A stretch of 64,000 bases of DNA from an uncultured Bacilli bacterium. Its GTDB lineage: Bacteria > Bacillota_I > Bacilli_A > RF39 > UBA660. Positions 39,698-40,388 of this stretch are shown piece after piece (positions within the stretch are counted from its first letter, which is position 1; each line of letters begins with the position of its first letter). The notes beneath the pieces were generated by a model, which saw only the letters and a list, made by a program, of their open reading frames with translations, did not search any database and was not told the origin of the DNA. The position numbers were made by a program, and so were the translations under genes. The stretch is from NCBI GenBank assembly GCA_934149465.1, contig CAKPEZ010000005.1, positions 12,646 through 76,645 of the forward strand, written 5' to 3'.

Positions 39698-39726
39698 TTG
39701 ACATTTTTATAAAAATATAGTATATT
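39698..39726 (+). promoter_or_regulatory. near-consensus sigma-A promoter of the type III TA-like locus
   Basis: TTGACA (39698-39703), 17-nt spacer, TATATT (39721-39726). Confidence 0.6.
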
Positions 39727-39749
39727 TATATTGCACTGAAAAGTGTGAA

Positions 39750-39852
39750 AATGTTTTTCGCTTCTGGATGGCGCGAATAATAAATGATTCCAGGCGACAA
39801 TGTTTTTCGCTTCCAGGTGGTGCGACTAATAAATGATCCTGGTTGAAAATGT
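39750..39852 (+). ncRNA. tandem 49-nt repeats, candidate type III antitoxin RNA (ToxI/CptI-like)
   Basis: Copies start at 39750 and 39799 (38 of 49 identical), with the first 5 nt of a third copy at 39848. Each copy holds a 5-bp helix that shows three compensatory pair changes between the two copies. Confidence 0.7.
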
Positions 39853-39859
39853 AGAATAA

Positions 39860-39886
39860 CTTCATCGAAAGATGGAGTTTTCTTTT
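39860..39886 (+). terminator. rho-independent terminator between the repeats and the toxin ORF
   Basis: CTTCATC-GAAA-GATGGAG followed by TTTTCTTTT. Confidence 0.65.
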
Positions 39887-39920
39887 ATTATGTGATATAT
39901 TATGTATGGAGATGATGCAC

Positions 39921-40388
39921 ATGGAAATAAAGAATGGTTATTTATATCATATTAAAGATGAATATTTCGATGTTGTAAATGATGATAGTTTAATGTAAAA
40001 TCATGAAAAGGGTAAGAAGAGACCAACTTATTTTACTATTAAAGATAAAGATATTTTATGGTTTATACCAATAAGTTCTAAAATAGATAAATATAAAAGA
40101 ATAATTGATAAGAAGGTAGAACGATATGGATTTTGTAATACAATTATAATTAGAAAAATAGCAGATGAAGATGCAGTGATACTTCTTCAAAATGCATTTC
40201 CTACATTAGAAAAATATATAGATCATGTGCATACTGTAGATGGCGTTCCTTTAAATGTTCCGACAGATTTACAACATGAAATAAAGAGTTTGTTTAAAAA
40301 CATGGTTGGATTAAAGAAAAGAGGAACTAATTTATTTTTTACTGATATAGATACTTTAAAAAAGAAAATGTTAGAAGAAATAGAATAG
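39921..40388 (+). pseudogene. ToxN/AbiQ/CptN-like type III toxin gene interrupted by one in-frame TAA (codon 26)
   Basis: ATG 39921 is in frame with track ORF 40176-40388. The only interruption is TAA at 39996-39998. The conceptual 155-aa product is MEIKNGYLYHIKDEYFDVVNDDSLM*NHEKGKKRPTYFTIKDKDILWFIPISSKIDKYK... Confidence 0.65.

Follow-up and report, generated by a model that had tools for sequence, protein, structure and literature searches.

What is encoded between ppdK and tsaC in an uncultured, low-G+C gut lineage labelled Bacilli, and can it still work? The question concerns positions 39698-40388, + strand, of a 64,000-nucleotide (nt) stretch of contig CAKPEZ010000005.1 (assembly GCA_934149465.1), here called the window. 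A preliminary description had proposed a type III toxin-antitoxin (TA) layout for this interval, with a ToxN/AbiQ/CptN-like toxin closest to the cptIN systems of gut Firmicutes, and had regarded it as an abortive-infection module. The window sequence was compared with loci of relatives and with metagenome contigs, and the locus was read at 39400-40700. On the + strand it consists, in order, of a promoter, 49-nt repeats in 2.2 copies, a terminator and an open reading frame (ORF) of 155 codons (39921-40388). This is, with high probability, a chromosomal CptIN-family type III TA locus at the first step of decay, in which the toxin gene (cptN) has been killed by a nonsense mutation and the gene for the antitoxin RNA (cptI) is intact.

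Family assignment was based on the conceptual toxin, the 155-residue (aa) translation with its internal stop read as X. This sequence matches NCBIfam NF047359 (CptIN family toxin, equivalog) over model positions 1-150 of 150, scoring 159.6 bits (cutoff 90; E 4.6e-47). A phmmer search of Protein Data Bank (PDB) sequences retrieves the crystallised CptN of Eubacterium rectale (4RMO; E 9.6e-21, residues 3-144), and BLASTP aligns it to the E. rectale-type CptN P0122 at 35% identity (E 6e-26). The window itself encodes a truncated product, and an AlphaFold2 model was generated for P0001, the closest intact homologue (92% identical to the conceptual toxin), from an alignment that included E. rectale-type sequences. 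The model reached a predicted local distance difference test (pLDDT) score of 90 and a predicted template-modelling (TM) score of 0.84; an earlier AlphaFold run on a shallow alignment of close homologues only gave pLDDT 42 and was discarded. Foldseek ranks 4RMO_A first among PDB matches to the P0001 model (TM 0.83, root-mean-square deviation 2.3 Å, E 3e-11), followed by AbiQ (4GLK; TM 0.74 at 15% identity) and then by MazF and CcdB. The CptN fold, of Kid/MazF type, has helices around a twisted beta-sheet core.

The profile search against Pfam that had been suggested as a check was negative: nothing relevant appeared for the conceptual toxin in Pfam-A at E up to 10 (an unrelated domain of unknown function scored E 0.13), and a PADLOC scan of the same sequence gave no match. 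Because both libraries are without a CptN model, these nulls are no evidence against CptN; it is the NCBIfam model that supplies the family. By profile and predicted fold, the ORF is a CptN toxin, and both the type III layout and the proposed affinity with cptIN hold. A homologue search returned 2,603 sequences at E below 1e-5, the best 120 of which are 155-170 aa long and 83-92% identical. No database names were recorded for the intact homologues of this clade.

The frame opening at ATG 39921 translates exactly as first described, including an in-frame stop: codon 26 (39996-39998) is TAA. Among 80 species-representative related loci, this codon is CAA (Gln) in 69 and a Thr, Val or Ile codon in the others; TAA occurs in the window only. 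Since relatives carry CAA at this position, the lesion is a single C-to-T transition. Contigs of the same species were picked from several human-gut metagenomes as those encoding the window's exact TsaC protein. Four of these, from different samples (L081, L082, L083 and L086), carry the TAA and are 100% identical to the window over ~2 kb to >6 kb, a recurrence that excludes sequencing error. In a scan of JGI metagenomes that allowed C or T (Y) at the mutated base, every allele recovered had C and belonged to another species. The stop codon is real and lineage-restricted.

TAA is an ordinary stop in this genome, where it terminates ppdK, and to our knowledge it is reassigned in no bacterial genetic code. 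The first in-frame ATG, GTG or TTG after it is codon 86, beyond the invariant Ser52-Ser53-Lys54. With CptN cut to 25 residues and the next start so far downstream, no active toxin can be produced. The residual 70-aa ORF at 40176-40388 (+ strand, GTG start), rightly called a fragment, is the C-terminal remnant of cptN; it is without Ser52-Ser53-Lys54 and the entire N-terminal half. Gene callers report it as a 70-aa gene in the four contigs that carry the TAA.

These observations bear directly on the possibility that the module is fully functional, its TAA being a sequencing or assembly error, read through, or bypassed by re-initiation. In favour of such a module, the remaining ORF is undamaged, the promoter, array and terminator are intact, and three contigs with bodies otherwise identical to the window (L084, L085 and L087) show CAA. 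Those three contigs, however, begin inside cptN, and their 10-20 differences from the window are confined to the first 100-170 nt (L084 1-170, L085 1-150, L087 1-105), with nearly all of the remainder identical, as expected of chimeric contig ends. Set beside the four independent TAA assemblies, the use of TAA to end ppdK and a restart codon lying beyond the Ser-Ser-Lys motif, they leave a functional module very unlikely. An intact allele segregating in the window's species was also considered; the CAA contigs were not counted towards it, their differences lying only at contig ends. Because the 5' sequence of cptI/cptN is near-verbatim in many co-resident species, the CAA ends may be assembly chimeras or local recombinants. 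The cptI-cptN 5' segment seems to behave as a repeat across genomes, at which assemblies break or become chimeric; alternatively, it is a recombination hot spot.

The inactivation looks recent, because the residues invariant in the clade are all kept in the conceptual toxin apart from T5N. Both RNA units of the window are identical to units that stand beside intact toxins. Judged from its sequence, the window copy has lost its toxin gene to pseudogenisation but kept the antitoxin gene intact. Contrary to the preliminary description, a real, lineage-fixed nonsense mutation means that this copy is no working abortive-infection module.

The antitoxin side of the locus was delimited by repeat analysis. 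Tandem Repeats Finder reports period 49 and 2.2 copies at 39745-39852 with 80% matches, and a second repeat search gives two 49-nt copies at 78% identity. As had been described, AATGT starts recur at 39750, 39799 and 39848, and GTGTGAA lies ahead of the first copy. The archetype array for comparison was taken from metagenome contig L094, an E. rectale-type locus with 45 nt x 2.1 copies that are 100% identical. In processed E. rectale CptI the last two nucleotides are G44 and A45, the latter bearing a 2',3'-cyclic phosphate (PMC4627078). Read in the register that ends each unit in GA, the L094 array is AAGUUUACCACUGACCGAUAUGUGGUAUAUAAAUGGUCGGGUUGA and matches all nucleotide numbers of that study (G13, A27-G35, A29, U30, A33, G44 and A45; PMC4627078). 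Because L094 reproduces every numbered nucleotide, the archetype's register was used for the window, which then holds two complete units, three GA sites and the first 6 nt of a third unit.

In this register, the GA at 39747-39748 (+) closes a partial 'unit 0' and, from junction conservation and the archetype's 3' end, is the putative first CptN cleavage site (GA followed by AAAUGU). Unit 1 of cptI occupies 39749-39797 (+; covariance model score 76.1 bits) and unit 2 occupies 39798-39846 (+; 75.1 bits), each 49 nt long. A third, partial unit, AAAUGU, at 39847-39852 (+) was recognised from the repeats and the junction motif and would provide the 3' processing site of unit 2. Searching related genomes for the same repeat-terminator-ORF layout, as had been proposed, was fruitful: 65 related loci have arrays of ~2.2 copies ending ~69 nt before the ATG, with periods of 49 nt (49 loci), 51 nt (14) or 52 nt (2), and the terminator is conserved. 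Unit junctions read NNGA followed by (A/C)AATGT almost without exception in related loci. The unit 1 sequence of the window is identical in 4 other species-level loci (5 including the window), and that of unit 2 in 38 loci including the window.

For structural analysis, 138 units from ~70 related loci were reduced to 53 distinct sequences and aligned (alignment A2). The alignment supports an H-type pseudoknot for each unit, with stem S1 formed by positions 9-13/25-29 and stem S2 by positions 16-20/41-45. The elements follow the order 5' tail, S1, UU, S2, UGGY, S1', an 11-nt A-rich loop, S2' and a UUGA or GCGA tail. On A2, S1 and S2 together are paired in 96.8% of cells, compared with 87.9% in shuffles, and only 23-59% are paired when the 3' partners are slid by 1-3 columns as a control. 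Double-sided changes are found in 7 of the 10 pseudoknot pairs: S2 reaches 99.6% pairing with covariation in all five pairs, and S1 combines three invariant G-C pairs with two covarying ones. RNAalifold, which makes no pseudoknot prediction, independently recovers S2. Single-sequence minimum-free-energy folding of the units is no better than shuffles (z -0.5 and -0.2); covariation was relied on instead, because such folding cannot represent pseudoknots.

The same stems can be placed in the window. In unit 1, S1 pairs 39757-39761 with 39773-39777, S2 pairs 39764-39768 (CUGGA) with 39789-39793 (UCCAG), and the A-rich loop L2 spans 39778-39788. In unit 2, S1 pairs 39807-39810 with 39822-39825 and S2 pairs 39813-39817 (CCAGG) with 39838-39842 (CCUGG); the fifth S1 pair of unit 1 is here replaced by a U-C mismatch. 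The L2 loop, UAAUAAAUGAU, is nearly invariant and holds AUAAAUG, which in the L2 of the archetype forms a functionally essential A-minor twist and kink-U segment (PMC4627078).

Covariation also disposes of the alternative that the region encodes a 71-aa protein on the minus strand (39707-39922) and that the repeats are incidental. That frame is genuinely open and has an ATG start. It is unconserved: all three minus frames contain at least 2 stops in 33 of 73 related loci despite 95-99% DNA conservation, the substitutions follow base-pair covariation rather than a codon-like pattern, and at 41-43% G+C, compared with 28% for the genome, the array is a likely place for chance ORFs. The frame had been dismissed as implausible from the outset, and a coding function for it now deserves practically no credence.

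The transcription signals complete the locus. The putative promoter at 39698-39726 (+), with -35 TTGACA at 39698-39703, a 17-nt spacer and -10 TATATT at 39721-39726, agrees with the site first proposed; it matches the consensus at 11 of 12 positions and is the best-scoring promoter-like site of the region. The DNA is AT-rich and the promoter scan as a whole returned 14 sites against 12.4 expected from shuffles, i.e. no enrichment, so the call rests on conservation, which both hexamers show when 69 distinct upstream regions of related loci are aligned. Directly ahead of the first processing site lies a 5' leader hairpin, GCACU-GAAA-AGUGU (39733-39746, +; -5.0 kcal/mol, z = -6.25), which the upstream alignment places at the same position in most related loci. 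The intrinsic terminator (39858-39889, +) has a 9-base-pair (bp) stem and GAAA loop at 39858-39879 followed by UUCUUUUAUU. This hairpin and T-run, also recognised in the preliminary description, form the sole terminator-like site in the region (0.2 expected by chance; -11.9 kcal/mol, z = -4.3), and the upstream alignment reveals compensatory changes in the stem along with a conserved T-run. Rfam models matched the region at chance level only, BSnc120 on the terminator and a snoRNA.

Conserved alignment columns between the terminator and the toxin start (39891-39911, +) mark a -10-like element, TGTGATATATT, at 39891-39901 and a GGAG ribosome-binding site at 39908-39911, 9 nt 5' of the ATG; across relatives the former reads TRTG-n-TATAYT, resembling an extended -10. 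A moderately conserved direct repeat, ATATACTA..TATACTA, lies at 39673-39696, just 5' of the -35 hexamer. Three related loci (L029, L045 and L078) carry a ~64-nt insert between the terminator and the toxin's ribosome-binding site, with its own TTGACG-18-TATATT promoter-like site, and seven more (L042, L043, L046, L049, L051, L052 and L055), with arrays that stop ~133-145 nt short of the ATG, probably share it. In this insert subclade the toxin may have transcription of its own, separate from that of the antitoxin, whereas the canonical arrangement relies on read-through.

Taken with the family's known biology, these elements suggest how the locus would operate in intact relatives. One sigma-70-type promoter would transcribe the leader hairpin and 2.2 tandem cptI units; most transcripts would end at the intrinsic terminator, and read-through would reach cptN. 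CptN, an endoribonuclease with a predicted Kid/MazF-like fold, would cut the precursor after G-A at each unit junction, and the two released 49-nt H-type pseudoknot RNAs would bind CptN and keep it inactive, probably in a ring of 2 RNAs and 2 proteins by analogy with the E. rectale structure. In the window, the change from CAA to TAA leaves a 25-residue peptide of CptN, next to an intact promoter, two intact cptI units and an intact terminator.

Several points weigh against this reading, the CAA contigs described above among them. Transcription, processing and toxin inhibition are all attributed to the locus by analogy with its family. The phmmer alignment to E. rectale CptN places Ser51-Ser52 on the invariant Ser52-Ser53 and Asp81 on Asp82, but clade-wide Arg53 aligns with an invariant Lys54, Ser85 with Ala85 and Tyr104 with an invariant His104. 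Identification of Ser51-Ser52-Arg53 with the Ser-Ser-Arg triad is our own reading, as Rao et al. (PMC4627078) give the triad without residue numbers. Rao et al. attribute recognition of the scissile adenine to three residues; two of these are changed throughout the clade, so that cleavage specificity could differ as well. Finally, the covariance model built from this clade (R1) misses the 45-nt units of E. rectale, even when run without filters at E up to 10. The RNA link to the archetype thus lies in architecture and short motifs and is not a statistical one. The miss fits an expectation of co-evolution between RNA and toxin, as Rao et al. (PMC4627078) describe, and RNA similarity is no defining criterion, since type III families are assigned by toxin sequence.

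Whether the locus belongs to CptIN or to a subfamily of its own was judged against described systems. Blower et al. (2012) catalogued 33 cptIN loci with repeats of 40-48 nt (mean 44.8) in 1.9-3.4 copies and toxins of 45-213 aa, including truncated toxins beside complete repeat arrays and terminators (PMC3401426). The range of 40-48 nt is the empirical range of those 33 loci and not a definition; the window fits the catalogue throughout save for repeat length, where 49 nt is one base over. A literature search for newer cptIN surveys returned only papers on the dental CPITN index.

The preliminary description had suggested a possible new subfamily, and a type III subfamily distinct from CptIN and defined by 49-nt repeats would have some arguments on its side: units of 49-52 nt fall outside the catalogued range (PMC3401426), the toxin is only 35% identical to E. 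rectale CptN, R1 misses E. rectale cptI, and the repeats are non-identical, unlike reported cptI arrays (PMC12283969). The three type III families, however, are defined by toxin sequence (PMC3401426; PMC5086642), and here the CptIN equivalog cutoff is exceeded by 70 bits over the full length of the model and the fold of the P0001 model matches 4RMO. Unit lengths form a continuum from 44-46 nt in IMG/VR contigs through 45 nt in the E. rectale type to 48-52 nt in this clade. R1 bridges part of this distance, detecting 46-nt IMG/VR units beside 43%-identical toxins full-length and in register (E ~2-5e-4), and the clade has in common with the archetype the order of the pseudoknot elements, AUAAAUG as the core of L2 and a UUGA tail. 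A separate subfamily is accordingly improbable, and the suggestion was not upheld.

The closest known system is E. rectale CptIN (4RMO, PMC4627078), likewise chromosomal, with a promoter, ~2 tandem repeats, a terminator and a toxin homologous to the clade's over its full length. Its CptI forms an H-type pseudoknot with the same order of 5' tail, S1, L1, S2, S1', A-rich L2, S2' and 3' tail, and shares AUAAAUG in L2, the UUGA 3' tail and the G-A before the junction. The differences are of detail: in our reading, L1 has 2 nt in the window and 1 in E. rectale, the S2-S1' linker is a conserved 4-nt UGGY rather than ~1 nt, L2 has 11 nt rather than 9, and S1 has 4-5 bp rather than 6, within a unit of 49 rather than 45 nt. 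The clade also differs in the active-site neighbours given above, and the window in its host and in the nonsense mutation of its toxin.

More distant systems share the principle. ToxIN of Pectobacterium and Bacillus and AbiQ have the same operon logic, in which the endoribonuclease carries out the processing itself and is then held inactive by the pseudoknot RNAs that result, and AbiQ belongs to the same fold superfamily. In contrast, no toxin model of Pfam or PADLOC matches the window toxin in sequence. ToxI units measure 34-36 nt, occur in 2.9-5.5 copies and assemble in 3:3 triangular complexes. Anti-phage activity has been demonstrated for ToxIN; the CptIN systems tested in E. coli had none. 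E. rectale CptIN is a bona fide TA system that stabilises plasmids and gave no phage resistance in E. coli, and Ruminococcus torques CptIN likewise gave none (PMC3401426; PMC5086642). An abortive-infection role is therefore not to be assumed even for intact members. The tenpIN systems (PMC12283969) also have two tandem antitoxin repeats that differ in sequence and can each form a pseudoknot; their toxin is of another family, and non-identical repeats were presented there as separating tenpIN from cptIN.

That distinction is of interest here, because the two units of the 49-nt group are only ~78-80% identical within arrays. Fixed differences between unit 1 and unit 2 lie at positions 1, 17, 18, 20, 29, 41, 43, 44, 46 and 47, and 6 of these 10 make up three compensatory S2 pairs (CUGGA/UCCAG versus CCAGG/CCUGG). 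S2 can form 5 of 5 pairs within each unit and only 3-4 of 5 across units. In 41 loci with 49+49-nt arrays, unit 1 is 95.4% and unit 2 99.5% identical to the window; for the toxin gene of the same loci, third-codon positions are 69% and positions 1 and 2 are 92% identical. No other part of the locus is as constrained as the RNA. The 51-nt subgroup of the clade and the E. rectale type (96-100% identical) have near-identical units, which confines unit heterotypy to the 49-nt subclade. In the literature, cptI repeats are reported as nearly identical and non-identical repeats are offered as a tenpIN peculiarity (PMC12283969, 2025).

The divergence may serve folding fidelity, recombinational stability or an asymmetric 2:2 complex. 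It is conceivable, though on balance doubtful, that the array is a heterotypic two-part kit of distinct RNAs, each kept constant in more than 40 species, in which one of each RNA would close a single asymmetric CptN2:CptI-1:CptI-2 ring and divergence of the stems would keep the units from pairing wrongly with each other in the precursor. If so, no earlier type III antitoxin would have had two non-equivalent subunits.

Genomic context places the locus among housekeeping genes, with ppdK upstream and tsaC/Sua5 downstream, in a window of 27.9% G+C. In 36 of the 80 related loci ppdK is directly upstream, even where its product is only ~65% identical to the window's PpdK; tsaC is downstream in none of the 80. 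Related loci come from metagenome-assembled genomes labelled uncultured Bacilli, Tenericutes, Mycoplasma sp., Erysipelotrichaceae and Clostridium sp. CAG:914, sampled from human (Hadza), rabbit, goat, mouse and other guts, and the related genomes include two complete chromosomes of ~1.46-1.52 Mb.

Toxin loss has occurred repeatedly in these relatives. Independent lesions include a stop at codon 67 in L013, a stop at codon 9 in L047, stops from codon 57 together with an alignment gap in L074, consistent with a frameshift, loss of the toxin start in L079 and L048, and a truncated toxin in L101. All of these loci have degraded or missing arrays, with none left in L047 and L079 and degraded ones in L013 and L074; the window's array is perfect. 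In TA systems the toxin must be lost before the antitoxin, because losing the antitoxin first would be lethal. The window would represent this expected order of decay, toxin first.

A perfect array beside a dead toxin also invites the view that the orphan cptI array is under selection after toxin loss, for example as anti-addiction immunity against related CptN toxins of mobile elements or as a regulatory small RNA. The pristine promoter, array and terminator are what this view would need; the sharing of an identical unit 2 by 38 loci of many co-resident gut species makes cross-neutralisation conceivable, and distant CptN relatives do occur on plasmids (32-34% identical) and IMG/VR contigs (37-46% identical). 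A very recent nonsense mutation, however, accounts for the same facts without selection, the other broken-toxin loci have missing or degraded arrays, and the precursor would stay unprocessed without CptN. Phage and plasmid collections, searched at both DNA and protein level, yielded no close relative of the clade. Selective retention is therefore unlikely, and recent toxin-first decay of a CptIN locus is the preferred reading.

The mobile relatives are of note in themselves. IMG/VR contigs classified as viral (L089-L092) encode CptN relatives 43-46% identical, with arrays at ~2861-2952 of 44-46 nt in ~2.1-2.2 copies whose units likewise differ (81-84% identity), and phages or prophages may therefore carry CptIN. 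Ten plasmid matches (H1-H10, e.g. NZ_CP048628.1 10535-10996) are CptN-like ORFs annotated 'hypothetical protein', from Megamonas, C. perfringens, Planococcus, Fusobacterium and Peribacillus. In 2012 all 33 cptIN loci were chromosomal and none was known on plasmids (PMC3401426).

Other features were observed around these loci. A second, more divergent cptN copy is present in L010 (3840-4301), L018 (1224-1680, apparently frameshifted), L022 (3871-4335) and L059 (5907-6371). These copies are ~63-81% identical to the window's toxin and start ~840-2,900 nt after the start of the first, pointing to tandem duplication; no second cptN was found within the 64-kb window. In L094 (399-1328) and L095 (702-1328), E. 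rectale cptIN of the archetype kind lies directly downstream of an RNA_ligase gene (PF09414) and upstream of a Peptidase_M15_4 gene. In the window, the genes 3' of tsaC, from 41787-43029 onward (L081 5070-8184), encode NUDIX, MazG-like, helix-turn-helix (HTH)/WYL regulator, NADAR, PfkB and Smr proteins, with the HTH/WYL regulator gene overlapping the MazG-like gene by 8 nt; this run is a nucleotide-housekeeping or possibly defence-related cluster.

The analysis leaves the understanding of how type III systems work unchanged, and what it adds concerns the extent and fate of the CptIN family. This locus and hundreds like it in uncultured gut Bacilli are unannotated, Rfam having no cptI model and Pfam and PADLOC no CptN model; in the window, the nonsense codon additionally hides the toxin from gene callers. 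The ~2,600 homologues of this clade's toxin alone show a family far larger than the 33 loci known in 2012. The wide distribution of the clade among uncultured gut Bacilli, often beside ppdK in small genomes, is mildly new, and the finding that cptI arrays can hold two non-identical, individually conserved units is modestly so. The window itself shows the expected safe order of TA loss, and other loci of the clade show a later stage, in which the array too has decayed.

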